Below, one piece after another: positions 11,436 through 28,526 of a stretch of DNA of 32,000 nucleotides. This DNA comes from Candidatus Saccharimonadota bacterium. GTDB taxonomy: Archaea; Nanohalarchaeota; Nanosalinia; Nanosalinales; Nanosalinaceae. Made by a program: the position numbers and the translations under genes. Each line of letters begins with the position of its first letter. Position 1 is the stretch's first letter. The DNA lies in NCBI GenBank assembly GCA_001761425.1, contig CP012986.1, positions 960,001-992,000 of the forward strand, written 5' to 3'. Under the pieces are notes generated by a model. The model had not been told where the DNA came from. It did no database searches and saw nothing but the letters and a program-made list of their open reading frames with translations.

Positions 11436-12320
11436 ATGAAATTAGGGATCGTCTACGGCGAGATATCCACAAAGCACCAGTTGATTATGGAGAGGGCAGA
11501 AGATATATTTGACTCGGTTCTGGCTGCTCCTATAGACGGCGTCAAGTTCATCCACGGCGAGGACGAATCAAAGGTACTTTACAAAGACGCAGATCTAACA
11601 GAGTTCGATGCAGTATATATCAGGATCGCAGACAATGATATGATGTTTGCAGAACACCTCGTCGAAGTTCTGAATGATGCAGGAGTGGTTACACAGGCCC
11701 ACAACGATACATACAGCTATGAATCCAACAAGTTCTACAGCATGAAGATACTGGCGGAAAACGGAGTTAAGGTACCGGACAGCGTCTACACTTTAAGCCC
11801 TGGAGTCGCTGTAGACGCAGCGGAAGGCCTCGGCTACCCCATAATCATGAAAACCGTACGTGGTGCCGGCGGAGAAGGAGTCATGAGAGCAGGATCTGAA
11901 AACGAGTTAAAACCGGTTATGGACACGATGAAATCCCTGGAACAGGAAATCTGCCTCCAGGAATTCAAGGAACACGGAGGAGAAGACACCAGGATAATCA
12001 CAATAGGCGACTACATAACCGCATACAGCCGGAGCAGCGGAGGAAACGGCTGGCGCTCAAACATCTCAGGAGGCGGAGAACGGATAGAAGCCGACGTCAC
12101 AGAAAAAATGAAACAGGCAGCCTACAGATCATGCAGAGCAGTAGGATTCGAAATAGGCGGAAGCGACGTCATAAACACAGAAGAAGGACCTTACGTACTG
12201 GAAGTCAACGGCTCCTTCGGAATAAGCGAAGAAATGAACGAAATAATCGGAGAAGACGTCGTACTGAAGATGGTAGAACGCATGCACAAAAGAGCGCTCA
12301 AGAGACAGAGAGAAAACTAG
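11436..12320 (+). CDS. RimK-family ATP-grasp ligase (alpha-L-glutamate ligase-like; RimK/LysX/CofF/MptN clade)
   Basis: Motifs are PIIMKTVRGAGGEGV, CLQEF, DTRIITIGD, WRSNISGGG and YVLEVNGSFG. The start is 3 nt after the preceding stop. Confidence 0.85.
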   Translation: MKLGIVYGEISTKHQLIMERAEDIFDSVLAAPIDGVKFIHGEDESKVLYKDADLTEFDAVYIRIADNDMMFAEHLVEVLNDAGVVTQAHNDTYSYESNKFYSMKILAENGVKVPDSVYTLSPGVAVDAAEGLGYPIIMKTVRGAGGEGVMRAGSENELKPVMDTMKSLEQEICLQEFKEHGGEDTRIITIGDYITAYSRSSGGNGWRSNISGGGERIEADVTEKMKQAAYRSCRAVGFEIGGSDVINTEEGPYVLEVNGSFGISEEMNEIIGEDVVLKMVERMHKRALKRQREN

Positions 12321-13246
12321 AGCTGAGACAAGGCCTCAACCAGTCTTTCTATACCAGGCCTCTCATACTCCTCCCTTCCCTCGCCATCACTGAAGTACAT
12401 TCCCGGTTTCGAATTAAGTTCCAGGATGTAAGGCCTTCCTTCCTTCGAAATAATGAAATCCACTGAGAAAAAGCACGGCCGGTATCCTTCCAGCTTTTCG
12501 CTCACCTCTCTCGCAGACTCCATGACCTCTCCAGGGACATCTTCAAGCCCGATGTATGTTATAGAGCCCTGCTTGGCAACATTACTGACACCGTCTTCCT
12601 CCTCCGGCGTCCGAACATATGTATACACTGGCTCATTGTTGACAAATACTATCCTGAGGTCATGCTGTTTCCCGGAGACCCCCGGAAGCGGAACCTCAGA
12701 GGCCTCAACAAACTCCTGGACCACGTACTCAGTATCATCTTCAAGCTCAAGGCCTTCTTTACTTTCTATAATATGGACGTTTTCTCCACCATGCCCGTAT
12801 CTGGGTTTGACCACGACTTTCCCATGTTCCTCAATCATATCCTGCAGAAACTCCTGAGAAGCCGTACTGGGGAAAAACTCCGGGAACTTTTCAGCCGACC
12901 TTAACTTGTCCTTGCAGAACTTCTCCAGTTCAAAATCATTAACAACAGGAAGTTCCTCGTTTAACTTCTCCTTAACCTCCTCTGTCTCCTCATTGAATGG
13001 GAACTTGTCAAAGGCCCCGTCGATATTGACATTCTTGATTTTCTCCCATTCCGAACCATTCCAGAAAAAGGCTTTCTCCAGCTTCCCTTTTTTATACCAG
13101 CTGTAATGTGCGTAGAATAGTTCAAGGCCTTTCTGCTTCCCAACCTCGGAATATGTCTGGTAGTCTCTGTTCTGATAGTGCTTGCTGAAAGGTCTTTCCT
13201 CCCAGCCTATGGCATCGCCCCAGATCACACCGATGTTCTTGGTCAT
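12317..13246 (-). CDS. ATP-grasp ligase, YheC/YheD-like (paralogue 3 of 3 in transcription order)
   Basis: Motifs are VVKPRYGHGGENV, HDLRIVFVN, SNVAKQGS and SVDFII...PYILELNSKPGMY. The N-terminal block is EKAFFWNGSEWEKIKNVNIDGAFDKF. Its stop overlaps the stop of the convergent RimK-like gene within CTAG at 12317-12320. Confidence 0.8.
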   Translation of the reverse strand: MTKNIGVIWGDAIGWEERPFSKHYQNRDYQTYSEVGKQKGLELFYAHYSWYKKGKLEKAFFWNGSEWEKIKNVNIDGAFDKFPFNEETEEVKEKLNEELPVVNDFELEKFCKDKLRSAEKFPEFFPSTASQEFLQDMIEEHGKVVVKPRYGHGGENVHIIESKEGLELEDDTEYVVQEFVEASEVPLPGVSGKQHDLRIVFVNNEPVYTYVRTPEEEDGVSNVAKQGSITYIGLEDVPGEVMESAREVSEKLEGYRPCFFSVDFIISKEGRPYILELNSKPGMYFSDGEGREEYERPGIERLVEALSQL

Positions 13247-13289
13247 TCAGAGACTCTCGCCGATAAACACGGCTTTTCAGGCCTCATTT

Positions 13290-14273
13290 TTAATCTTTGG
13301 CCAGCTCCTGAACCGCGTCCACGATTTTCAGCATCCAGGGCCTCTCCCATTCCTCACTTCTTCCAGGACCGTGATAATAAACGCCTGGCTGAGAGTTAAG
13401 CTCGACGATAAACGGCTCTCCATCAGCGATCATGAAATCAACAGTATAGATTACAGGCCTGAAATCCTCGAGCTCGTCCGCCACTTCCTGGACACGAGAT
13501 AGAACTTTCTCAGGCACATCCTCAAGGCCTATATACTTCTTCGAGCCTCCCTGCGCCACGTTAGAAAGCACAGAGTCCTCGCCTGGGATCCTGAGATAGC
13601 TGCCGACGACTTCATCGTTTACCACGAGAATTCTGAGATCGTGAGGGCCTTCCACGTCCAGTTCAGGTATACCTGCGTCATCAACAAAACTCTGGACGAT
13701 AACTGTATCAGGATCCATCACATCGTAATCCTCCATAGACTCGACCACGCGTATATCTTCGCCGGAGGAACCGTAACGAGGCTTGAGAATCGCTTTACCG
13801 TGTTTTTCAAGCATTTCCTCGACGCTTTCTTTTGAGGCCTTCCTGGTCTCCGGAATGTACTCGGGGAAACGCCTGTAAGTCTTTAATTTATCCTGACACA
13901 GGTCAGCGACCTCGGGATCGTTCAGGACACCGATCTCACTCTTCATCTCATCCTTAAGCTCGTACTTCTCCCTGTCATGGCGGAAAAGATCGTAGACACC
14001 ATCCAGCTGAACATCTTCAACTTTCTCCCACTCCTCTCCGTTCCAGCGGAAGGCCTTCTCCATTTTTCCTGAATCATACCAGCGGTACTCTCCGCATACC
14101 ACGTCAACCCCGTGTTCTCTCAGCATTTCCGTATATTCGGCATAATCATCATTTTTCCACTGCTTGTCGAACGGTTTACCGCGGTCAAACTTTACCTCGT
14201 TCTCCCACCACAGGAAAGCAACCAACTTCTGAGACGAATCTGACCCAGCTTCAGACGGTTCACCAGATGACAT
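13290..14273 (-). CDS. ATP-grasp ligase, YheC/YheD-like (paralogue 2 of 3)
   Basis: Motifs are ILKPRYGSSGEDI, HDLRILVVN, SNVAQGGS and TVDFMI...FIVELNSQPGVY. The track starts at GTG 14294, inside the upstream gene. The ATG at 14273 lies 7 nt after that gene's stop and is preferred. Confidence 0.8.
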   Translation of the reverse strand: MSSGEPSEAGSDSSQKLVAFLWWENEVKFDRGKPFDKQWKNDDYAEYTEMLREHGVDVVCGEYRWYDSGKMEKAFRWNGEEWEKVEDVQLDGVYDLFRHDREKYELKDEMKSEIGVLNDPEVADLCQDKLKTYRRFPEYIPETRKASKESVEEMLEKHGKAILKPRYGSSGEDIRVVESMEDYDVMDPDTVIVQSFVDDAGIPELDVEGPHDLRILVVNDEVVGSYLRIPGEDSVLSNVAQGGSKKYIGLEDVPEKVLSRVQEVADELEDFRPVIYTVDFMIADGEPFIVELNSQPGVYYHGPGRSEEWERPWMLKIVDAVQELAKD

Positions 14274-14280
14274 AGAGAAA

Positions 14281-15231
14281 TCAGGCCTCTGCACGTTTTC
14301 TCAGCATTTTGAGGATGTTTTTGATCTTCGGAATCTCTTTCTCCTTCTCCTTGACCTTGTGATGATAGTAAGTTCCCGGCTTCGAGTTCAGCTCTACGAC
14401 CCACGGCTTCAGGTCCTCGTCAAACATGATATCGACGGAGAAAATCGCCGGCTGGTACTGTTCAAACTCTCCCTTGATCTCCTCGATAATCTCAATCACT
14501 TCATCCGGCAGCTGTTCACGTGAAATATACTTCTGGTTCCCGCCACGAGAAATATTCGATATAAGGCCTTCATCAGGGACACGGACGTAGTTGCCGTTCT
14601 GGACCTCGCCGTCGATGACGATAGTCCTCAAGTCGTGAGGGCCTTCAACACCCCACTCCGGGTAGCCGTCTGTCGGGATAAACCGCTGTACGATGAAATC
14701 TTCCGGCTCGTCAGGCTCGTCAAAATCCTCCAGTTTCTCTACTACCTCAACTCCGTGACCTGCGAAGCCGTAACGCGGCTTGAATACGAACATGCCGTAT
14801 TTTTCCAGCATCTTGGAGGCGTTTTCTACAGTAGCAGTCCTGGTCTCCGCAATCCTGTCCGAAAAAAGCTCGTAGGTCTGAAGTTTATCCTTACAGATCT
14901 CCTCCATCTCAGGATTGTTCACACAGCCTACATCCCTGAAAATCTCTTTCTTCAGTTCCCTTGTCTCTCTATCAAATTTGAACTTATCATAAACCAGGTC
15001 AAGGCCTACATCTTCAACTTTCTCCCACTCAGAACCGTTCCAGTAAAAGGCCTTTTCCAGTTCTCCATCTTCGTACCATCTGTATTTGGCTATGTAGACT
15101 TTCAGGCCTTCGCTGTGGCCAAGTTCTGTGTATTTTGCGAAGTCCTTGCTTCTTTCTCCTCCGAAAGGATCTTCTCTATCCCATTCTACTTCTGCATCCC
15201 AAAGTAATCCGACGGCATGTTCTTCTGTCAT
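14281..15231 (-). CDS. ATP-grasp ligase, YheC/YheD-like (paralogue 1 of 3)
   Basis: Motifs are VFKPRYGFAGHGV, HDLRTIVID, SNISRGGN and SVDIMF...WVVELNSKPGTY. The N-terminal block is EKAFYWNGSEWEKVEDVGLDLVYDKF. Confidence 0.8.
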   Translation of the reverse strand: MTEEHAVGLLWDAEVEWDREDPFGGERSKDFAKYTELGHSEGLKVYIAKYRWYEDGELEKAFYWNGSEWEKVEDVGLDLVYDKFKFDRETRELKKEIFRDVGCVNNPEMEEICKDKLQTYELFSDRIAETRTATVENASKMLEKYGMFVFKPRYGFAGHGVEVVEKLEDFDEPDEPEDFIVQRFIPTDGYPEWGVEGPHDLRTIVIDGEVQNGNYVRVPDEGLISNISRGGNQKYISREQLPDEVIEIIEEIKGEFEQYQPAIFSVDIMFDEDLKPWVVELNSKPGTYYHHKVKEKEKEIPKIKNILKMLRKRAEA

Positions 15232-15286
15232 AAACGGATTTTACGCGGCTACACTCTTTAAATCCAGTGACTCCTCAGATAGATCT

Positions 15287-16504
15287 ATGACCACAGTCCA
15301 GGAACTCAAAGAACTGGAAGAACTGGAAAACCCGGAACTCAGCTTCGAACAGGAAAAACTCATCGGAGAACTCTCACAAGCAGGGAAAATCCTGATAGAC
15401 AGAGCCTCCTGGATCAAAAACATCAAGATCAAGAACAAAGTCAGCGAGCGAGAAAGATTCAAGCAGAAACGCAGGAAAGGCAAAAATTTCAGGCCGGAAT
15501 TCGAGTACAGAAAATTTCCTCACGACGAGGAAAAACTGCTGAAAGTACTGGATCAATGCATAAAGGCCTCACAGGGAATCAGCGAGCAGCACCTGGAAAA
15601 GTACGGAGCGAAAAAAATCACCGCAGAAGATATGACAGAGTTTTTCTCGGAGATCTTCCAGGAGATGAAACTCTACGTCAAACTAGGCGCAAATATTGAA
15701 AGCGAGGAGGCCTGGCGCAGGTACTCGAAAAAGATATGGCCTCTAACACAAAAGAAAACTGTGGAAAACTCGAGGAAAAAACTTGGAGGCCTTGAACCCC
15801 AGGAAATGGAGAAAAACATTTCCCCTGAAGAGCTTGCGGAGATGTTTGAACAGGAGCTTGATAGATTAGATGTTGAGTACGACGTAGAGATCAGGGATAC
15901 AGGAGGATGCTACAACATCCCAGAGAAGAGAACTGTAGTAGTCGCTGCCGGAGACGAAGAAAAAAGGATGTATTCAAGGCCCGAGGCCGAGATGCTGACA
16001 ATGCATGAGCTTTTCCACGCAATGAGAGCATTAAACGGGTTTGAAGCAGGAAGAAAATCAGGTTTCCCTGAGATTCTAGGCCTTCACACGCCTTTCTACG
16101 ATCAGACTGAGGAGGGCGGCGCTCTTTTCAGGGAGAAAGCGACAGAAACCAGTTTTGAGGATAAAGAGTTTGACTACCATCTTCGTCTGATCGCTGCTGT
16201 CGAGATCGCTCGTTCAGATGATTACAGGGAAAGTTTCCAGGAAATAGTTGAGAAACTTATCGACCTCGGTGGAAGCGTTGACAGAAGTTTTTATCTGGTA
16301 GCTAGGAACCGTGAGGCCTTGAGGCATCATATCTACCAGGCAGGATACTTCGAGGAATGGAAAGACCGGGACGAGAAATGGCCTCTGCTGATTGGAAAGA
16401 TAAACTCTGAATGGGCGGAAAAGTTCAGGGAAGAGGTAGAGGCCGGAGGAATGTTTGAAAGGCCTCTGATCGGCGAAGAAAAACTTTTCGATTTCCAGTT
16501 TTAA
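15287..16504 (+). CDS. HExxH zinc metallopeptidase, tentatively DUF1704 / QEGLA-motif / MATCAP-like carboxypeptidase family
   Basis: The track starts at 15128, overlapping the divergent gene. The ATG at 15287 (MTTVQELKELEE...) is the sensible start. The motif string is MHELFHAMRALNG...TEEGGALFRE, which matches the family pattern HE..H ... NG ... (Q/E)EG(L/G)A as I remember it. Confidence 0.6.
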   Translation: MTTVQELKELEELENPELSFEQEKLIGELSQAGKILIDRASWIKNIKIKNKVSERERFKQKRRKGKNFRPEFEYRKFPHDEEKLLKVLDQCIKASQGISEQHLEKYGAKKITAEDMTEFFSEIFQEMKLYVKLGANIESEEAWRRYSKKIWPLTQKKTVENSRKKLGGLEPQEMEKNISPEELAEMFEQELDRLDVEYDVEIRDTGGCYNIPEKRTVVVAAGDEEKRMYSRPEAEMLTMHELFHAMRALNGFEAGRKSGFPEILGLHTPFYDQTEEGGALFREKATETSFEDKEFDYHLRLIAAVEIARSDDYRESFQEIVEKLIDLGGSVDRSFYLVARNREALRHHIYQAGYFEEWKDRDEKWPLLIGKINSEWAEKFREEVEAGGMFERPLIGEEKLFDFQF

Positions 16505-16976: not shown

Positions 16977-17852
16977 ATGAACATGGATGGCTGGTTTGAG
17001 GATCCAGGACACCTGAGGCCCAATGATATCGCTGAAGGCCTGGAAAGACAGTACTGGGATGATTTTGCCGAAGAGGTCTCTGGCAATGTATCAGGATACC
17101 AGGACGAAGAATTCGTAGAAGTAAGGCCAGAGGACGTCATCGAAGTTCTGGAAAAATACGACCCCGGGACACAGGACTCTGCAACTGAGGATGCCGTAAG
17201 ATCCAGAATCAAAAGCAGGGTACTGAACCCGTATATCAGAGACGAGGAAACACCGGATTACATTGACCAGATAGTGACCAAACAGTTCCCAGGCCTCAAA
17301 GGAAAATACAGATTGGCGGATCAGGGCCTTGCACGCACAGTCTTCAGAGGACCTGTGGACTCAGAAAAAGATAAAGCACTTTACCTGCCGAATGAAGGCC
17401 TTGAACCGGATATCTACGACATCGATATCAGGAACAGGATGGTGATGGTAGCAGTTTCTATGCAGAACGCTGAAAGAATCGAAGAGTTCGTCTCGGACAT
17501 ATTCCAGCCCTTAATAATCGAGGACAACGGAAGAAAGATTCCTGCAGCATTTGGAGAATACAGGCCTCTGGAAGACGTACCGGAGGGTCGGAAGAAGGAA
17601 GCAGCTAGCTTTGCAAGAGAACTACAGGACAGAGCTAACTCCGGCGAGATAATAACTCTGTACACCCTGGAAGAAGACACGGAAAACGAGTTCGTCTTCG
17701 GAGAAAGCCACAGAGAGGAAAACATAAGATATGATACAGAAAGAGAGAAACTGGTTGCAGCAGATGCCGGAGAGATTAATCCGAACGTATCAAGAGAGGA
17801 AGTTGAAGGCCTTCTCGACCAGGAATACATTGACCTGATAGAGTCATTCTAG
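16977..17852 (+). CDS. Hypothetical acidic protein
   Basis: The 291-aa ORF has the acidic, halophile-type composition of its neighbours. I recognise no motif. Confidence 0.6.
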   Translation: MNMDGWFEDPGHLRPNDIAEGLERQYWDDFAEEVSGNVSGYQDEEFVEVRPEDVIEVLEKYDPGTQDSATEDAVRSRIKSRVLNPYIRDEETPDYIDQIVTKQFPGLKGKYRLADQGLARTVFRGPVDSEKDKALYLPNEGLEPDIYDIDIRNRMVMVAVSMQNAERIEEFVSDIFQPLIIEDNGRKIPAAFGEYRPLEDVPEGRKKEAASFARELQDRANSGEIITLYTLEEDTENEFVFGESHREENIRYDTEREKLVAADAGEINPNVSREEVEGLLDQEYIDLIESF

Positions 17853-17899
17853 AAAAACCAGACTGCTAGATATTCACAGCGACCCTGACCTCGGTAGGG

Positions 17900-17910
17900 T
17901 TTTAAAAATT
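17900..17910 (+). promoter_or_regulatory. TATA-box-like element upstream of the rpoE1 operon
   Basis: TTTTAAAAATT lies at 17900-17910. The SD-like GAGGTAGAGGA is at 17938-17947 and the ATG at 17953. Confidence 0.35.
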
Positions 17911-17952
17911 ACTGCCGTCCCCTTTAATGTCCCATAGAGGTAGAGGAATTTT

Positions 17953-18531
17953 ATGTACAAACACGTTACGATTAAGGACTCAGTGAGAGTGCCGCCAAAG
18001 CACCTCGGAGAAGACGTTGAGAAATCTGTTAAAGGAGGCCTTGCCTCTGAAGTAGAAGGAGAGATTTTCGAGGACTTAGGTGTAGTAATCGGTATCGAGG
18101 AAGTTAACAGCGTTGAAGGTGGAGAGATCGAGCCTGAAGATGCAGGTGTCCACTACAACGTCGAGTACAGGGCACTTGTGTTTGAGCCTGAAATGCATGA
18201 GATCGTAACAGGTGAAGTCGTCGATGTGACCGATTTCGGAGCCTTCATCCGTTTAGGTCCTTTCGACGGACTCTGCCATGTTTCCCAGATCATGGACGAA
18301 TACGTGAACATGGACGAGGAAAACAGCATGCTTGTCTCCGAAGAGAACCAGTTCACAGTTGAGAAAGGAGACTCAGTTACCGCAAGAATTATCGCAGTTT
18401 CCCTCGAAAACAATGAGACCAACAAGATCAACCTTACGATGAGACAGCCAGGCCTCGGAAAAGAAGAATGGATCGAGCTTTACGAGGAAGAGCAAGAAGA
18501 ACAAGAGGAAGAGGACGAAGGTGAAGAATAA
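17953..18531 (+). CDS. rpoE1: DNA-directed RNA polymerase subunit E' (Rpo7)
   Basis: The N-terminus MYKHVTIKDSVRVPPKHLGED is typical. The S1 domain is GEVVDVTDFGAFIRLGPFDGLCHVSQI. The tail is poly-acidic. Confidence 0.9.
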   Translation: MYKHVTIKDSVRVPPKHLGEDVEKSVKGGLASEVEGEIFEDLGVVIGIEEVNSVEGGEIEPEDAGVHYNVEYRALVFEPEMHEIVTGEVVDVTDFGAFIRLGPFDGLCHVSQIMDEYVNMDEENSMLVSEENQFTVEKGDSVTARIIAVSLENNETNKINLTMRQPGLGKEEWIELYEEEQEEQEEEDEGEE

Positions 18532-18534
18532 AAG

Positions 18535-18639
18535 ATGATCGAAAATCACAGCTTCTCCCGACTTAAAGGCCTATCAGGCCTTCAGGCAAGAAACCTGGAA
18601 GGTTTCGGACAAGCCGAGAACCACGAGGCGATCTTCTAA
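18535..18639 (+). CDS. Small ORF A (34 aa), paralogue of ORF B; its stop overlaps the spt4 ATG (TAATG)
   Basis: I translated it manually as MIENHSFSRLKGLSGLQARNLEGFGQAENHEAIF. It starts 3 nt after the rpoE1 stop. Homology to ORF B runs exactly from ATG to stop (see findings). Confidence 0.5.
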   Translation: MIENHSFSRLKGLSGLQARNLEGFGQAENHEAIF

Positions 18640-18827
18640 TGGCTGAGAAAGCGTGCAGGAACTGCAACCGTATCGTAGAAGACGCATCCGAATGCCCCGT
18701 ATGCAAAAACAATGATTTATCCGATTCCTGGAACGGACTCGTAGTTATCTACAACCCTGAAGACTCCGAAATATCGGAGAAAATGGGTATAAACACTCCA
18801 GGACGTTACGCAATCCGTGTCAAATAA
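18639..18827 (+). CDS. spt4: Transcription elongation factor Spt4 / RNA polymerase subunit E''
   Basis: The 62-aa ORF has the zinc ribbon CRNC...CPVC and a C-terminus GRYAIRV typical of the family. Confidence 0.9.
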   Translation: MAEKACRNCNRIVEDASECPVCKNNDLSDSWNGLVVIYNPEDSEISEKMGINTPGRYAIRVK

Positions 18828-18839
18828 AAACGTGATACT

Positions 18840-18947
18840 ATGTACAAAAATCAAAGATTTTTTGGACTCAAAGGCCTTTCAGGCCTTTTTCAGACAAGAA
18901 ACCTTCAAGGTTTCGGACTAGCAGAAACTCACAAAGGTGAGTTTTGA
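18840..18947 (+). CDS. Small ORF B (35 aa), paralogue of ORF A; its stop directly abuts the rps24e ATG (TGAATG)
   Basis: I translated it manually as MYKNQRFFGLKGLSGLFQTRNLQGFGLAETHKGEF. Confidence 0.5.
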   Translation: MYKNQRFFGLKGLSGLFQTRNLQGFGLAETHKGEF

Positions 18948-19391
18948 ATGGAAGCAAAGATTACAGCCGTAAAGGAAAACCCTCTCCTAGACAGGAGAGA
19001 AGTAGAAGTAGAAGTAAAACACGAACAAGAGGCCACACCAAGCAAAGAAGGCGTCGCAGATCGAGTTGCAGCAGAAAACGGCCTCAACACAGACGAAATA
19101 GACGTAGAACACGTCTACACAGGCTACGGAAGACAGGAGTCCAAGGCCTTCCTCAAAGTCCACCAGCAGTTCGAATACGACGAAGAACTTCAGGAAGAAA
19201 CCATCGAAGAAGAGGAAGACGTACAGGTCACAGAAGAATACGCAGAAATTGTCTCAGGAACCATCACAGAAGCTAAGAACCAGCTGAACGAGATGGAAAA
19301 TCCTGACTTCAAGGCCTCACTCAAAGCAGAAAAAGAAAACAAAAACCGTACAACACTCATCGACTGGCTTGAAAGCCAGATCGAAGGCTGA
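18948..19391 (+). CDS. rps24e: 30S ribosomal protein S24e with a C-terminal extension of about 45 aa
   Basis: The N-terminus [27 protein letters not shown]...[16 protein letters not shown] matches the S24e pattern. It has the conserved archaeal neighbours spt4 upstream and rps27ae downstream. Confidence 0.9.
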
Positions 19392-19429
19392 AGGCCTTCT
19401 CAAAAATCTCTTCACGAGGTGAACAGATT

Positions 19430-19579
19430 ATGGGAAAACATGAAGTAGTCCAGATCCACGAAAAATACGACGAAGAAGGCAACTACACAGGAGAGAAATG
19501 CCCAAGATGCGGATCCTTCCTGGCCGAACACGACAACCGCAAAGCATGCGGCAAATGCGGCTACACAAAACACGAATAA
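19430..19579 (+). CDS. rps27ae: 30S ribosomal protein S27ae (49 aa, below the ORF-track threshold)
   Basis: I translated it manually as [49 protein letters not shown]. It has the zinc ribbon CPRC...CGKC. The SD GAGGTGA is at 19416-19422. Confidence 0.85.
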
Positions 19580-19669
19580 ACACTCCAGAGGCCTCTCGAA
19601 GGCTTCAAATACTTCTTCTCCAATTTATTTTCTGACGGTTATTTAATTATCGCACAGAAATATTCCTGT

Positions 19670-20227
19670 ATGAGGAGAATCTTTTTCGCCACCGGCAACA
19701 AGGGAAAAGTCAAACATGCTTCTAACATCCTGGGCGACGAGTTCAAGGTAAGACAGGTTGATGTAGAAACAGTAGAACCCAGTATCGATTCTATCGAAGA
19801 AATCGCGGAGGCGAAAGTAAGACAGGCCAGGGAGAAAGCAGATATCCCTGATGAAGGCCTCCTGATCGCAGATGATTCAGGCCTTTTCGTGGATTCTCTG
19901 AACGGTTTTCCAGGCCCTCAAACTTCGTTTTTCGACGAGAAAGTCGGCAAAAACAATCTGCTGAAATTAGTCAAGGAAGATAACTCCGCAAAGTTTAGAG
20001 CTGCAGTAGCTCTGGATCTCGGAAATGATACGAAAGTGTTCACGGGCGAGGCCTCTGGAGAAGTCGTTGAACCCCGTGGAGACGATGGCTTTGGCTACGA
20101 TCCTCTTTTCCTGCCGGATGGAAACGATAGTACATGGGGAGAGGACAGTGAGTTCAAGGATGAGAGTTCTCACAGGAAGGAGGCCCTGGAGAAGCTGAGG
20201 GATTACATCTCGACAGGTGTAGAGTAG
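19670..20227 (+). CDS. Non-canonical purine NTP pyrophosphatase (ITPase, HAM1/RdgB family)
   Basis: Motifs are FATGNKGK, ADDSGL, FPGP, GFGYDPLF and SHR. Confidence 0.9.
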   Translation: MRRIFFATGNKGKVKHASNILGDEFKVRQVDVETVEPSIDSIEEIAEAKVRQAREKADIPDEGLLIADDSGLFVDSLNGFPGPQTSFFDEKVGKNNLLKLVKEDNSAKFRAAVALDLGNDTKVFTGEASGEVVEPRGDDGFGYDPLFLPDGNDSTWGEDSEFKDESSHRKEALEKLRDYISTGVE

Positions 20228-22343: not shown

Positions 22344-24026
22344 ATGTTACTGGCAGCTAGCTGGGCTCAGAATTTTGCATTGATGATTATAACTGCAGCT
22401 GTGCTTGGAGCTGTTGCCAGAAAGACGAAACAGCCAACAGTTATCGCCTATATCATTACAGGCCTTTTGCTCGGTCCTTTCTTCCTCGATATAATTGCAG
22501 AGACTGAGGGGACCAAACTCCTAGGGGAGCTAGGGTTGAGCTTTCTTCTATTCTTGATAGGCCTTGAGATAAAGCTGGATGAGATTAGAGAGATCTTCAG
22601 CGAGGTCTCTGTCATTGCGGTAGCTCAGATTTCGGTTTCCGCTGTGCTTGGTTACCTAGCGGGCCAGGCCTTTGGCTTCTCATTTATTGAATCAGTTTTC
22701 GTAGCTGCTAGCTTTACCTTCTCATCGACAGCAGTAGTGGTAAAGCTCCTGTCCTCAAAAGACGAGATTTCAACTCTTCCCGGAAAAATTGGGGTAGGAG
22801 TTCTCCTGATACAGGATGTCGTGGTCGTACTTTTACTCGCTCTGTTATCAACGAGTGCTTCAACTCCTTCACAGATAGTTGCAAGTATTGCAGAGATCGC
22901 TGTAATGATCAGTGTTATCGCAGGAGTATCTTACCTCTCCTCAGAGAAACTGCTGCCCAGGGTTTTCAGAAAAGTCTCAGAGAACCGTCAGGCCTTTTTC
23001 ATCCATGGCGTGACCTGGGCTTTCCTTTTCATCACTTTATCAGACAGTCTCGGAGTCTCAACAGAAATAGGAGCATTCTTCGCCGGCCTAAGCCTGGCAC
23101 AGCTCCCTTACAGCCATGAACTTATTGAAGAGATAAGGCCTCTAACAGATTTCTTCATGGCCGTATTCTTCATAAACATAGGTTTAGGCCTCACAGGAAA
23201 CGCATTATCCACCTACATGGTTGAGGCCTTTGTCGCAGCAAGTATTTTGATGATCGGGAAGTTTGCTGTTCTTTTCTTCACTATCGACCGCCTGAAGTTT
23301 ACACCGGAGACCTCGCTGAAGTCTGCACTTAACCTTAGTCAGATGAGCGAGTTCTCACTTATTCTTGGTTCGTTAGGAGTCAGTAAAGGCCTTATTTCCC
23401 CTGAAATCTTTGGCTTCATCAGTTTGACAATGATCATTACCGTGGGCTTTTCCTCTTACTTTATCGTCTTCAATGAAAAGATATACAGGCGTTTTGAGCA
23501 TTTGTTAGCAAGGATTGATTCTGAGGCGAAGAAGGATGTTGACGTGGATGTTCTTGAGGACCACGCTCTGATCATAGGCTATGATTTTATCGGGAGGCGC
23601 TCTGCGGAGATCCTTGATGACGCCTACGAACGGGTTATGGTAGTTGACAGAAACTCTAACAACGTAAACAGACTGAGCAGATCAAGTTACGAGTACATTT
23701 ACGGCGATTTCGGGCATGGAGAGATAAGAAATGCCTCCCAGATCGATAAGGCAGATTTTATCCTTAGTCTTGTACCCGATATCAATGTGAACAGGAAGAT
23801 TGTTGAGGAGGCCTCGCCGGAAGCCGCGGTTTTCGTGAAAGGCGACAGTCTAGAGGATGCCACAGAGCTTTACGACCTCGGAGCACATTACGTTATTCAG
23901 AAAAACGAATTAGTTGGCGAGAAGATGGGAGAGTACCTGAAACTTTACTTGGAGGATGAAGAGCTTTTCCATGAAGAAGTGAAGAGAGACAAGGAAAGAA
24001 TTGAATGGGGTGACAGAAGTGTCTGA
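22344..24026 (+). CDS. Kef-type monovalent cation:proton antiporter (CPA2) with a C-terminal RCK/TrkA-N domain
   Basis: It has about 12 TM helices, with PTVIAYIITGLLLGP near the N-terminus, followed by the soluble domain HALIIGYDFIGRR...VVDRN. The start is 1 nt after the tsaC stop. Confidence 0.85.
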   Translation: MLLAASWAQNFALMIITAAVLGAVARKTKQPTVIAYIITGLLLGPFFLDIIAETEGTKLLGELGLSFLLFLIGLEIKLDEIREIFSEVSVIAVAQISVSAVLGYLAGQAFGFSFIESVFVAASFTFSSTAVVVKLLSSKDEISTLPGKIGVGVLLIQDVVVVLLLALLSTSASTPSQIVASIAEIAVMISVIAGVSYLSSEKLLPRVFRKVSENRQAFFIHGVTWAFLFITLSDSLGVSTEIGAFFAGLSLAQLPYSHELIEEIRPLTDFFMAVFFINIGLGLTGNALSTYMVEAFVAASILMIGKFAVLFFTIDRLKFTPETSLKSALNLSQMSEFSLILGSLGVSKGLISPEIFGFISLTMIITVGFSSYFIVFNEKIYRRFEHLLARIDSEAKKDVDVDVLEDHALIIGYDFIGRRSAEILDDAYERVMVVDRNSNNVNRLSRSSYEYIYGDFGHGEIRNASQIDKADFILSLVPDINVNRKIVEEASPEAAVFVKGDSLEDATELYDLGAHYVIQKNELVGEKMGEYLKLYLEDEELFHEEVKRDKERIEWGDRSV

Positions 24027-25671
24027 GATACTCTACCTACTGACCGCCATTTTCGGGATATCCTCTTTCCTAATCTTCATACTTGAGAGATACTCACATC
24101 CATATCTGCCCGCCTATATCGCCTCAGGCCTTGTTATAGGACAGTTCGTAGATCCTGCAAGCTTCTACTCTCTGGCCGAAATAGGCATAGCATTCCTGGT
24201 ATTCATATTCGGCCTGAAATTAGAGCCGGAGAAGCTGAAAACAGTTGTAAAGGAAAGCCAGGCGATGACAACAGTCCAGGTCTCCGCAGTAGGCCTCCTG
24301 ACCTTCCTGGCCGGTATCTTACTAGGCCTTGAAGTCATGGACTCCGTGTACCTGAGTATCACTACCTCACTCAGCTCTTCACTGATAGGGATGCAGTTGC
24401 TGAACAGAGAGATCGAGATAGATATCCTGCACGGTAGACTGGCGGAATCCACACAGCTCATACAGGACATGATCGCCATAACAGCCATAATCGCCTTGAA
24501 CGCAATGCATTCGAGTTCAAGAACAATCATAATTCATATGCTACTGGGCGTAGGCCTTCTAGTGGTCGCAGGCCTTACAAGAAGGTATTTATTCAGCAGG
24601 ATCGCAGAGCTGATCGATGAGGAAAGAGAGCTTATGGTGCTTACAAGCCTTGGCTTTTTGACAGGTTTCATCGCTGTAGCACAGACTCTAGGCCTTTCGA
24701 CTGTTGTAGGTGCGTTCGCTGCCGGTGTAGCGATCTCCAAGTTTCCTTACAACATCGAGGTCATCGATACTATGGAGCCTCTGAAAGACTTTTTCTCAAT
24801 ACTGTTCTTCGTTTCCATAGGCGCACTAGTTGTGTTCCCCAGCCTGAAGATACTTTTAATAGCCGTTGTCCTATTATTTCTCTCCCAGGTTGTGAAGCCT
24901 GCGGTGGCAATGACCGTATTGATAGCGCAGGGATATGATAAGAGGACTGCCCATTTAACAGGCCTTAACATTGATCAGATAAGCGAGTTTTCACTTATTG
25001 TCGCCATACAGGCCTTTATTGGAGGATTGATTGGACAGGATGCGTTCCAGGGTATTATACTGGCAGCTTCGGCTTCATTCCTGATCTCTTCTTACACCAG
25101 TCGGCACGGTGAGATTATACATCAGAAGTTGAACTGGTTCGAGCCTTTCAGACCTACTAACAGGAAAGTCAGGGAAAAAACCAGTGCTGAAGGCCTTGAA
25201 GACCATGTTATCCTGATTGGTTATGACACACAGGGTAAACTTATCGTAGAAGCTCTGGAGGATGAAGGCGAGGATCTTGTGATCATTGAGAACAATCCTG
25301 ACCGGATAAATGAGGTGATGGAAGCCGAGGAAAACTATGTCTTCGGCGATGCCATGGATATCTCTTCCTGGGACGAAGCAAATTACAGGGATGCAGAGCT
25401 GATAATCTCGACAGTACCTATTAAAGATGTCTCAGAACAGATTATAGGCCTGGAGACAGAAGCTGATAAGATCATCAGATCCAATGCTATGGAGGAAGGA
25501 GCAGAGTTCGTAGAAAAAGTATCCTACGTTGAAGTACCGGATCTCATGGCTTCTGAAAGACTGGCAGACCACATCAAAGGAGTAATGGAAGACCCGAGTT
25601 ACAAGGATGAACTCAGGAGAAGAAACCTTTTAGAGCTTAGGAAACTTCTAAACGAACAGGAAGAAAAATGA
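24001..25671 (+). CDS. Second Kef-type CPA2 antiporter with an RCK/TrkA-N domain (tandem paralogue)
   Basis: It has the same architecture (PAYIASGLVIGQF ... HVILIGYDTQGKL...IIENN). The start is uncertain between TTG 24001, GTG 24010 and GTG 24019, and all three overlap the upstream stop at 24024-24026. Confidence 0.85.
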   Translation: MNGVTEVSEILYLLTAIFGISSFLIFILERYSHPYLPAYIASGLVIGQFVDPASFYSLAEIGIAFLVFIFGLKLEPEKLKTVVKESQAMTTVQVSAVGLLTFLAGILLGLEVMDSVYLSITTSLSSSLIGMQLLNREIEIDILHGRLAESTQLIQDMIAITAIIALNAMHSSSRTIIIHMLLGVGLLVVAGLTRRYLFSRIAELIDEERELMVLTSLGFLTGFIAVAQTLGLSTVVGAFAAGVAISKFPYNIEVIDTMEPLKDFFSILFFVSIGALVVFPSLKILLIAVVLLFLSQVVKPAVAMTVLIAQGYDKRTAHLTGLNIDQISEFSLIVAIQAFIGGLIGQDAFQGIILAASASFLISSYTSRHGEIIHQKLNWFEPFRPTNRKVREKTSAEGLEDHVILIGYDTQGKLIVEALEDEGEDLVIIENNPDRINEVMEAEENYVFGDAMDISSWDEANYRDAELIISTVPIKDVSEQIIGLETEADKIIRSNAMEEGAEFVEKVSYVEVPDLMASERLADHIKGVMEDPSYKDELRRRNLLELRKLLNEQEEK

Positions 25672-26244: not shown

Positions 26245-27015
26245 CTAGTCCAACCGGTAGGATTCGTAGACTGATATCTGGCCTTCTTTCTCAACACATT
26301 CATCTGTCTCTCTGATCTGGTAGGCCTTGGTTGTCCTGTTTTCTGTCTCTGGTAGGTGGTATCGGGCTTTCAGTTCCATCTCCATAGTCCCTTTTCCGGG
26401 GACTGTGTCGTCCTTTCTCTCAGTATAGACATCTACTCTTGCGTTCTGTGTGCATGCCCTGTAGTTCGGTGTTTCAAAGGCTCTTGGCAGCAGAAACTCG
26501 TTGGTTACCCGGACTGTTCCGAGCGCAGTTTCCTGTCTATCTGTCATCTCCGCAGAGTTCCTGAGTTCCAGGTTTATCTCTGGCTGAGGGCCGGATATAT
26601 CGAAGATGAAAAGACCTACTATCAGGATAGTGCCTGCTGTAACTAGGTATTTTGCTTTTTTCTCAGGTATCTGGATTTCTTTCTCGCTTATCATGTATCC
26701 TGCTGCGAGGAAAACTGCGGATGATCCTGCGAGGATGAGGAAAGTAGCTGCGGATCCGAAGTCAAATCTCAGTAAGGTGTACGGTACGAAGATCAGGTAA
26801 GATATCGATGCGAGGAAGTAAAGAGGTATACTCCATTTTGAAACCGTGAGTCCTGTACCTGCGAAAAACGTTACTGAAGTGAGGAAGAGTATAGCTGACT
26901 TGACCACGGGAGATATCTCCAGGATCACCTCCATCCCGAAATAAAGGATGGTGAAAAGCCCGAATAACATTCCCAGGACATAAAAAGCACTTGAAGAGGA
27001 CAGGCCTTTCCGCAT
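26245..27015 (-). CDS. Hypothetical membrane protein with about 5 TM helices and a C-terminal extracytoplasmic domain
   Basis: The 256-aa ORF has a hydrophobic N-terminal 150 aa and then a soluble domain. I recognise no motif. Confidence 0.6.
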   Translation of the reverse strand: MRKGLSSSSAFYVLGMLFGLFTILYFGMEVILEISPVVKSAILFLTSVTFFAGTGLTVSKWSIPLYFLASISYLIFVPYTLLRFDFGSAATFLILAGSSAVFLAAGYMISEKEIQIPEKKAKYLVTAGTILIVGLFIFDISGPQPEINLELRNSAEMTDRQETALGTVRVTNEFLLPRAFETPNYRACTQNARVDVYTERKDDTVPGKGTMEMELKARYHLPETENRTTKAYQIRETDECVEKEGQISVYESYRLD

Positions 27016-27080
27016 GTACAGAAAAATTTTCTAGAATGTTTATATGAGTTACAGTCAAGCGGAACGGATACCAGCTATCT

Positions 27081-28029: not shown

Positions 28030-28086
28030 ATGAACGAAATTACAAGAATTTCTGAATTTGCAGAAACTCACAGAGGCGAGTTTTGA
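28030..28086 (+). CDS. Short upstream ORF C (18 aa), a truncated relative of ORF B, ending 2 nt before the rps15 ATG
   Basis: I translated it manually as MNEITRISEFAETHRGEF. Its last 28 nt are near-identical to the 3' end of ORF B. It may be only a shared leader or SD context. Confidence 0.3.
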   Translation: MNEITRISEFAETHRGEF

Positions 28087-28088
28087 AC

Positions 28089-28526
28089 ATGACAAGAATG
28101 CATTCTGACGGTAGAGGCGTTTCTGGATCTTCCAAACCTGTTGACGCAAAACAGCCTGAGTGGATCGATTACGATGCTGAAGAGGTCAAGGACCTTGTTG
28201 TAAGGCTTCGTGAAGACGGTTTTGACCCTGCTCAGATCGGTCTGAAACTGAGGGATGAGTACGGTATCCCCGATGTCCAGCAGATCACAGAGAAAAAGGT
28301 TACAGAGATTCTCAAGGAGGAAGATGTTGCTCCCGAGATACCTGAAGACCTGAAGAACCTGGTAGAAAAAGCAGAGAACATGAAAGAGCACCTGGACGAA
28401 AACCAGAACGACCAGGAAGCAGAGAGACAGCTCGAGCTGACAGAAGCGAAGGTCAGGAAAGTCGCAGACTACCACAGACAGGAAGGCAACATCCCAGAGA
28501 ACTGGGAATACGAAAGAGACGAGTAA
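28089..28526 (+). CDS. rps15: 30S ribosomal protein S15 (uS15)
   Basis: The N-terminus MTRMHSDGRGVSGSSKP is typical of archaeal S15. The ATG at 28089 is preferred over the tracked TTG at 28083. Confidence 0.9.
   Translation: MTRMHSDGRGVSGSSKPVDAKQPEWIDYDAEEVKDLVVRLREDGFDPAQIGLKLRDEYGIPDVQQITEKKVTEILKEEDVAPEIPEDLKNLVEKAENMKEHLDENQNDQEAERQLELTEAKVRKVADYHRQEGNIPENWEYERDE

Follow-up and report, generated by a model that had tools for sequence, protein, structure and literature searches.

Repetitive extragenic palindromic sequences and bacterial interspersed mosaic elements (REP/BIME), miniature inverted-repeat transposable elements (MITE) and Rickettsia palindromic elements (RPE) are all forms of repeated palindromic DNA, and REPs carry the tetranucleotide GTAG next to their hairpin. 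Autoregulatory mRNA leaders of ribosomal proteins, and the kink-turn leader of archaeal L7Ae, are structured RNAs that serve a single operon and mimic one rRNA site. Prokaryotic MITEs have been reviewed (PMC10969869), and experiments in Haloferax volcanii have demonstrated termination-reinitiation where stop and start codons overlap (PMC6728339). Here we describe three short elements in a 32,000-nucleotide stretch of contig CP012986.1 (the window), from the nanohaloarchaeal genome SG9: two open reading frames (ORFs), A and B, that precede spt4 and rps24e, and a third copy that precedes rps15. Judging from sequence comparison, we think it probable that these elements are dispersed, lineage-restricted, structured leader-ORF cassettes that act as portable translational couplers.

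In the overlapping gene pairs of H. volcanii and Escherichia coli (PMC6728339), as in the cassettes, the upstream stop codon is in overlap with or directly next to the downstream start (TAATG, TGA-ATG or ATGA), and the Shine-Dalgarno (SD) sequence of the downstream gene is placed inside the upstream ORF. Unlike those pairs, in which the upstream partner is a neighboring gene, the cassette is a repeated, portable unit of ~57-110 nt that stands before many unrelated genes and has conserved hairpins and a UGGAC motif. Engineered bicistronic designs (BCDs; PMC5995908; bioRxiv 10.1101/2023.02.09.527918) have the same order of parts as the cassette, namely a first ribosome-binding site (RBS), an ATG, a leader peptide that holds a second RBS, and a stop codon fused to the start of the gene. 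BCDs rely on translating ribosomes to act as a helicase, as we propose for the cassette, but the cassette is natural, archaeal and multi-copy, and it has stable hairpins whereas BCDs are engineered for the removal of structure. Like REP/BIME, MITE and RPE sequences, the cassettes are short multi-copy hairpin units that form modular arrays and whose presence or absence varies at orthologous sites; like REPs they have a conserved short motif beside a hairpin, and like RPEs they are stop-free and able to sit inside translated sequence. Unlike all of these, every cassette with a placed downstream gene sits precisely at a start codon, is oriented in the sense direction and brings an SD, a stop and an ATG, and orthologous cassettes are under purifying selection with compensatory changes; unlike REPs and MITEs, no associated RAYT or TnpA was seen among the proteins of the window or in the flanks examined. 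The cassettes resemble the ribosomal-protein and L7Ae leaders in placing structured RNA, SD region included, at the 5' end of ribosomal-protein cistrons, and differ from them in that the same cassette is found before at least 18 different genes and has no Rfam match. Full-text searches of the literature turned up no account of elements of this kind in Nanohaloarchaea or in DPANN archaea. The underlying principles, from leader ORFs and stop-start coupling to SD sequestration and palindromic repeats, are already known; the apparent novelty is that they come together in one portable, multi-copy unit that sits precisely at the start codons of expression-machinery genes.

Two probable leader ORFs in the rpoE'-rps27ae operon

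A sequence-only reading of the window had pointed to ORFs A and B in the two intergenic regions of rpoE'-spt4-rps24e. Their coordinates and translations were rechecked, and the starts, stops and products were as described: ORF A encodes MIENHSFSRLKGLSGLQARNLEGFGQAENHEAIF and ORF B encodes MYKNQRFFGLKGLSGLFQTRNLQGFGLAETHKGEF. The features of the operon are given below, together with matches to a covariance model that was built from 22 distinct members of the family and that recovered further copies.

17953-18531, forward strand: rpoE', RNA polymerase subunit E' (PF03876 plus S1 domain; 98-100% identity to Nanohaloarchaea proteins)
18535-18639, forward strand: cassette A, ORF A, a 34-codon leader ORF of the long form (model match 18584-18641, 30.8 bits)
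18639-18827, forward strand: spt4 (PF06093)
18840-18947, forward strand: cassette B, ORF B, a 35-codon leader ORF of the long form (model matches 18840-18874 and 18892-18950)
18948-19391, forward strand: rps24e (PF01282)
19430-19579, forward strand: rps27ae, the last gene of the operon rpoE'-A-spt4-B-rps24e-rps27ae

ORF A starts 3 nt past the rpoE' stop, and its TAA overlaps the spt4 ATG (TAATG, 18637-18641); the stop of ORF B is a different one, TGA, and abuts the rps24e ATG (18945-18950). Both junctions are compatible with translational coupling, as had been proposed. The similarity of the two ORFs at the DNA level sets in at the ATG and fades past the stop, with 81% identity over the aligned stretch. 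Of their 34 sense codons, 14 are identical, 7 differ synonymously and 13 non-synonymously, with one whole-codon indel; the proposed paralogy of the two ORFs is supported. A 22-nt core, AGAAACCTNNAAGGTTTCGGAC, is present in 2 copies in the window compared to 0.00 expected from shuffles. The SD sequence said to be embedded in the end of both ORFs, GAGG(T/C)GA, was found as claimed in A (GAGGCGA) and not in B, which has AAGGTGA.

The same operon was compared across ~40 Nanohaloarchaea species, in most of which both intergenic regions are just 0-30 nt long. Searches of the operons of 80 relatives with A and B, using nhmmer, gave weak matches only, because the long form is specific to the species of the window; short forms were found by direct reading of the relatives' intergenic regions. 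Relatives with 99% identical RpoE' have the same long copies of A and B. The 94% relatives have a 57-nt short form before spt4, ATGATCGAAAATCA[GA]AGATTTTCTGGACA[CT]GCAAAAACTC[CA]C[AG]AAGGTGAGTTTTGA-ATG, and no cassette before rps24e, where the native 'GTGATATT ATG GAA GCA' is intact. A 93% relative (L157; labels of this kind are our own handles) has short forms before both genes. The A and B copies of the window are therefore derived short forms that acquired a two-hairpin module of 48 and 51 nt, respectively. This module was placed right after (T/C)GGAC and itself ends in CGGAC.

The basic cassette is ~57 nt long and is positioned exactly between the native RBS plus ATG and the second codon of the gene. 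It consists of NNC, hairpin 1 (GAAAATC-ara-GATTTTC), an invariant and single-stranded UGGAC, a short linker, hairpin 4, whose 3' arm bears a fresh SD (GGTGA), a stop and a new ATG. In cassette-free relatives the same RBS and ATG are joined straight to codon 2 (S24e in L089, S15 in L170, and Spt4), and at these three genes the native RBS and ATG now open the leader ORF while the cassette provides the gene's new SD and ATG. Cassette B begins at the native rps24e RBS (GTGATACT) plus ATG, and its TGA abuts the new rps24e ATG. Both ends of the cassette are flanked by ATG, which is also the start codon, and no clear terminal inverted repeats or target-site duplications were detected.

The three hairpins that had been read from the sequence, AAGGCCT/AGGCCTT, GAAACCT/AGGTTTC and, in B, GAAACTCAC/GTGAGTTTT, were confirmed. 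A fourth hairpin (AAAAATC-aaa-GATTTTT, 18846-18862), absent from that reading, was identified at the 5' end of B and is a mere remnant in A. The hairpins and modules of the two cassettes are as follows.

18541-18557, forward strand: decayed hairpin 1 of A (GAAAATC-aca-GCTTCTC), then CCGAC in place of TGGAC, compared to the intact copies of L083, L089 and L157
18563-18610, forward strand: extra 48-nt module of A, ending in GGAC and missing from the short forms of L083-L089 and L157
18566-18582, forward strand: hairpin 2 of A, AAGGCCT/AGGCCTT
18590-18606, forward strand: hairpin 3 of A, GAAACCT/AGGTTTC
18616-18636, forward strand: decayed hairpin 4 of A (GAGAACCAC-gag-GCGATCTTC), containing the spt4 SD GAGGCGA
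18846-18867, forward strand: hairpin 1 of B plus the TGGAC motif, identical to the L157 short form
18868-18918, forward strand: extra 51-nt module of B, inserted right after TGGAC and ending in GGAC
18870-18888, forward strand: hairpin 2 of B
18898-18914, forward strand: hairpin 3 of B
18924-18945, forward strand: hairpin 4 of B (GAAACTCAC-aaag-GTGAGTTTT), a 9-bp stem in both the minimum-free-energy and the centroid structures

The intact hairpin 1 of L083, L089 and L157 reads GAAAATC-ara-GATTTTC followed by TGGAC, and the L157 cassette lacks the module of B but is otherwise 97% identical to it. The SD of rps24e (GGTGA) lies inside the 3' arm of B hairpin 4, 7 nt upstream of the ATG. The predicted folding energy of cassette B was -34.8 kcal/mol (z -3.35), and both cassette B and the family consensus adopt the predicted fold with z about -3.4; the fold of cassette A was weak (z -1.17).

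Stable stem-loops inside an operon might instead be transcription attenuators or terminators, or sites of RNA processing or stability, that set the level of each cistron and to which translation of the ORFs is irrelevant. REP-like hairpins stabilise upstream mRNA in bacteria, and short T runs lie behind some of the stems (GATTTTTTGG, GGCCTTTTTC). These T runs are, however, stem arms paired with A runs, and a scan with bacterial-type criteria found no terminator-like site on the forward strand of 17800-19700. Sites of this kind would also leave unexplained why a start codon is constant at the 5' edge, why the frame is open in every copy and why there are stop-start junctions, and we consider this explanation very unlikely.

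Conserved stems, an open frame and a variable peptide

Stem pairing was scored on a MAFFT alignment of the family. Across the two stems 94.9% of cells were paired, compared to 24-68% when the partners were slid by 1-3 columns, and compensatory double changes were present in 9 of 16 pairs, a value reached by none of 500 shuffles. The stems therefore covary strongly, RNA covariation having been one of the checks suggested by the sequence-only reading. The pattern used to scan for hairpin 1 (below) tolerated a non-complementary W..W at columns 11 and 19; the members were nevertheless all complementary there (14 A-U and 8 U-A). G-U pairs occupied 5 stem cells versus 4-8 for A-C, small numbers that are compatible with palindromes at the DNA level too.

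Substitutions between A and B had been taken to favor protein coding, and a new small protein family associated with the ribosome or RNA polymerase had been offered as one identity for the ORFs. Neither proposal was supported. The differences between A and B fall 7/7/14 by codon position, which is not significant, and several of those at third positions sit in hairpin loops. In the 22 family members the entropy by codon position was 0.40/0.41/0.30, third positions being the least variable; the fourfold-degenerate third positions T24 and A27, together with C6, were invariant, and the first two bases of codon 2 varied freely. A functional small protein family, for example of ribosome- or RNA polymerase-associated peptides, would fit ORFs that are intact, preceded by RBS-like sequences and open in every copy, an N-terminal MxENQRFSG that is alike in many copies, and the calling of ORF A as a gene by JGI in one assembly (L091). 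The conserved N-terminus is, however, hairpin 1, and it is altered by substitutions that compensate within the stem (ENQRF, EIQRI, ENYKF). Double substitutions in the stems rewrite the peptide (ENHEVVF, ENRGGDF, KDHEGDL, ETHKGEF), the C-termini differ and have indels of 1-4 nt, and cassette lengths of 56-61 nt shift the C-terminal frame. Some members use one of the two remaining frames for this stretch of DNA (MRKSKIFSL..., MSKIVDFMD..., MMKITDF... in the S27ae, S7, L24 and L052 Spt4 copies), all three reading frames of hairpin 1 being in use across the family, and third-position variation is not in excess. The ORF B peptide had no homologues at E<=1e-3 among 1.84 billion representative proteins, a search of limited power for a 35-residue query, and neither peptide had a Pfam match at E<=1. 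For these reasons we regard a small protein family as highly improbable.

A faint resemblance of LKGLSGL to stalk protein P1 had also been mentioned. This stretch is translated hairpin 2 and is missing from the short forms; homology to the P1/P2 tail (Ribosomal_60s) had no support, neither peptide matching Pfam at that threshold. Readings as C/D-box or H/ACA small RNAs or as kink-turns were dropped because the boxes were not conserved between A and B or across the family. With Rfam 15, the whole window had no match at gathering thresholds and 18480-19000 had none at E<=1. Taken together, what is conserved is the set of hairpins, the UGGAC motif and an open frame, and not the peptide sequence. 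Of the three identities put forward for the ORFs (a leader peptide, a structured leader RNA or a small protein), a leader peptide or structured leader RNA fits best, given conserved hairpins and an embedded SD.

The frame set by the start codon was open in all 38 distinct cassettes, the other two frames were open in 32 and 29 of the 38, and shuffled cores were open in 35% of cases. The start codon was ATG in all but 4 copies, which had GTG. Most cassettes have GGTG, GTGAT or GAGG 3-11 nt upstream or adjoin the stop of the upstream gene, and in almost all the stop lies on, overlaps or is a few nucleotides from the downstream start (TGA-ATG, TAATG, ATGA). The exceptions are two of the 38 whose stops lie within the SD, 9-10 nt upstream, and a cassette before rps24e (L031) that has no stop at the junction.

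A dispersed family and its turnover

JGI metagenomes were scanned with the hairpin-1 motif RAAAWTCARAGAWTTTYTGGAC, a pattern that does not require an ATG. There were 15 matches in 14 Nanohaloarchaea-type stretches. In all 15 an ATG or GTG lay 6 nt upstream, and an SD-bearing hairpin 4, a stop and a start codon, which in L161 is GTG and not ATG, lay downstream; the scan did not return the window's own contig, though cassette B fits the pattern. Across Nanohaloarchaea genomes, related cassettes of the ~57-nt short form precede at least 18 different genes, the majority of which encode ribosomal proteins, translation factors or RNA polymerase subunits. Those confirmed by Pfam encode RpoN, Rpb4, aIF1A, SUI1, aEF2, S27e, S7, L13, L14, L24 and L4, as well as a transketolase-like E1-beta, a phosphodiesterase and a RimK-like ligase, and the list also includes Spt4, S24e, S27ae and S15. 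Every copy with a placeable downstream gene was in the sense orientation at its start codon. Translation and transcription machinery accounted for 10 of the 12 distinct genes matched by this unbiased scan and makes up, as a rough estimate, a tenth of such a genome. The family is lineage-restricted within Nanohaloarchaea. Two 20-kb stretches from other Nanohaloarchaea (Ca. Nanohalobium constans and L170, the latter containing the entire rpoE'-rps27ae operon) were found to have no cassette, a search of phage records returned nothing, and a motif scan of viral contigs gave 0 matches.

The strong enrichment before translation and transcription genes raises the question of a common translational operator. 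Hairpin 1 plus UGGAC would then be bound by a protein or RNA acting in trans, and the genes for ribosomal proteins, translation factors and RNA polymerase would be controlled together as a single regulon, the leader ORF and SD hairpin being the output stage. Such an operator would account for the conservation of hairpin 1 and for a UGGAC that is invariant even at fourfold-degenerate positions, neither of which is explained by a coupling model, as well as for a nucleotide conservation above that of the flanking genes. The binding factor is, however, putative, there is no Rfam match even at E<=1, whole lineages lack the cassette, and so do genes of the same class in or next to the window: it is absent at S6e, aIF2-gamma and rpoE' within the window and at S3Ae just past its right end. 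We therefore hold an operator of this kind to be distinctly unlikely.

The third clear copy in the window, its downstream gene and a possible remnant are located as follows.

28030-28086, forward strand: third cassette, short form, with leader ORF MNEITRISEFAETHRGEF and a stop 2 nt before the rps15 ATG (covariance model 52.6 bits, E 3e-14)
28089-28526, forward strand: rps15 (S13e/S15; PF08069, PF00312)
19377-19432, forward strand: possible remnant of a decayed cassette before rps27ae, with TTCAC-gag-GTGAA enclosing the SD (weak match, 15.9 bits, E 0.009)

Orthologues of the third cassette were found in L167, L168 and L169. Relatives whose S15 is 97% and 74% identical retain the rps15 cassette, hairpin 4 having changed in a compensatory way; the cassette is absent in 70% and 64% relatives (L170 and L171), in which the native RBS directly precedes the gene. 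At the rps27ae position, L157 and L025 have clear cassettes that are read in a different frame. The genome of the window has three clear copies in ~44 kb; no further copies were found in the ~12 kb beyond the window. Two more weak matches to the covariance model, on the reverse strand at 910-969 (19.8 bits) and 26979-27037 (14.9 bits), lie in T-rich intergenic DNA and include AAAAATCA-ga-TGATTTTT followed by TCGG.

At the nucleotide level, orthologous rps24e cassettes equalled or exceeded the conservation of the flanking coding sequences, which for this comparison were those of spt4, rps24e and rpoE' (0.97 versus 0.83-0.86, 0.92 versus 0.82-0.84, and 0.83 versus 0.70). Orthologous copies share codon 2 and are closer to one another than to paralogues in the same genome. 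These results suggest that the cassettes have been inherited vertically under purifying selection, with a precise loss or gain now and then, and they argue against recent bursts of transposition.

This bears on whether the cassettes are purely selfish palindromic repeats (REP-, MITE- or RPE-like), spread by a putative enzyme that acts on 'hairpin + GGAC', with no benefit to the host and with a layout that is simply what selection tolerates before essential genes. Several features fit this explanation. The presence of cassettes differs among close relatives with precise boundaries (S24e, S15, Spt4), the number of hairpins differs between copies (L011, L052, L161), the two-hairpin module entered both A and B right after GGAC and itself ends in GGAC, and the palindromes pair perfectly by Watson-Crick rules and show no bias toward G-U. 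Moreover, in low-GC archaeal contigs hairpin 1 plus TGGAC follows a tRNA gene or forms an in-frame part of a long ORF (L093, L146), and RPEs likewise sit in frame inside ORFs. Dead inserts should decay, however, whereas fixed copies keep their stems by compensatory changes and are conserved at least as well as neighboring coding sequences. The greater likeness of orthologues than of paralogues gives no sign of recent bursts, the sense orientation at start codons of all copies with a placed downstream gene and the predominance of expression-machinery genes in the unbiased scan also speak against it, and no transposase was found among the protein domains of the window or in the flanks examined. 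A purely selfish repeat is, in our estimate, unlikely, and a repeat-element origin for the cassette is probable.

Units consisting of hairpin 1 plus TGGAC were also seen in archaeal-looking metagenome contigs of low GC content (25-36%), where additional perfect hairpins of 7-9 bp follow. The sites are in L093 (1775-1829, reverse strand), L146/L158 (2775-2829, forward strand), L103 (1407-1464, reverse strand), L097, L117, L129 and L148. In L093 and L146 the unit is in frame within open stretches of 266 and 648 amino acids, respectively, in L097 it is located after a tRNA gene, and L103 has a four-hairpin version ending in CAAAACAGAGGTGTTTTGAATG before a gene that, judged from its N-terminal sequence alone, is dapA-like. 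In L118, L131 and L142 the unit lies between a tRNA gene and a duplicated 3' end of the same tRNA, an arrangement that looks like an integration (att) site. The low-GC units are possibly related to the cassette, which would then have kin outside Nanohaloarchaea that behave like RPEs. A generic enrichment of any hairpin plus NGGA in these contigs was dominated by the selection of loci and was not used.

A proposed translational coupler

The cassette most likely serves as an expendable leader ORF, to which translation of the following gene is coupled. In the mechanism that we propose, ribosomes would first bind at the native start, which is unstructured, and translate the stop-free cassette as a disposable leader ORF, melting the hairpins along the way. 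They would then stop translation at or beside the new AUG and start again from it, aided by the freed SD; without upstream translation, hairpin 4 would conceal the SD. The cassette would thereby be a natural 'bicistronic' translational coupler, placed mainly before genes of the translation and transcription machinery.

Several observations weigh against such a coupler. Some Nanohaloarchaea, namely L170 and Ca. Nanohalobium constans (L171), have no cassette at the same genes, so that the cassette is dispensable. The core is poor in stops in all three frames, and because of this a part of the open-ORF signal is automatic. The hairpins are partly decayed in cassette A and in the rps15 copy (z -0.33), so strict structure is not indispensable. 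Stems are nearly pure Watson-Crick, and because G-U is not favored over A-C mismatches the palindromes could be selected at the level of DNA rather than RNA. Finally, coupling alone does not explain the invariant UGGAC or the conserved hairpin 1; these may serve for binding by a factor or for recognition by the agent that spreads the element.

A combination of these ideas is also conceivable, in which a mobile 'hairpin + GGAC' module associated with start codons, and shared with other small-genome archaea, was domesticated by Nanohaloarchaea as a common translational operator for a ribosome and RNA polymerase regulon, read by a putative factor that binds hairpin 1-UGGAC. We consider this quite unlikely. 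Hairpin 1-UGGAC possibly mimics the 3' end of 16S rRNA, which we take to be helix 45 followed by UGGAUCACCUCC. If the domesticated-operator reading were true, the system would be an archaeal counterpart of the eukaryotic 5' terminal oligopyrimidine (5'TOP) system, made from a selfish repeat.

If the portable-coupler reading that we favor is true, dozens of unannotated Nanohaloarchaea ORFs of 18-35 codons are one repeated leader cassette and not small proteins, and a DPANN archaeon, a group in which gene regulation is almost uncharted, has a natural portable version of the synthetic bicistronic design. The cassette would offer a compact, mutable system for the study of archaeal termination-reinitiation and SD sequestration, and its turnover between close relatives, together with its modular gains of hairpins, a case study of a repeat element settling at the start codons of essential genes.

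Other features of the window were noted as well. S24e (18948-19391) has 147 amino acids in this clade, and because distant archaeal S24e proteins align over the first ~60-120 residues only, its acidic, conserved C-terminal part looks like a clade-specific extension. Upstream of the operon, 11436-16504 contains four RimK/YheCD/TTL-like ATP-grasp paralogues that adjoin a MATCAP-domain protein (tyrosine carboxypeptidase family), a cluster that may be a system for the ligation and trimming of peptide tails. An ORF of 291 amino acids at 16977-17852 (forward strand), between a PIN-domain gene and rpoE', has no Pfam match and is confined to SG9-like genomes, the 94% relatives having no gene at that site. 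Tandem paralogues at 22344-25671 (forward strand) encode an Na+/H+ exchanger fused to TrkA_N, and four of these are consecutive in a close relative (L167).

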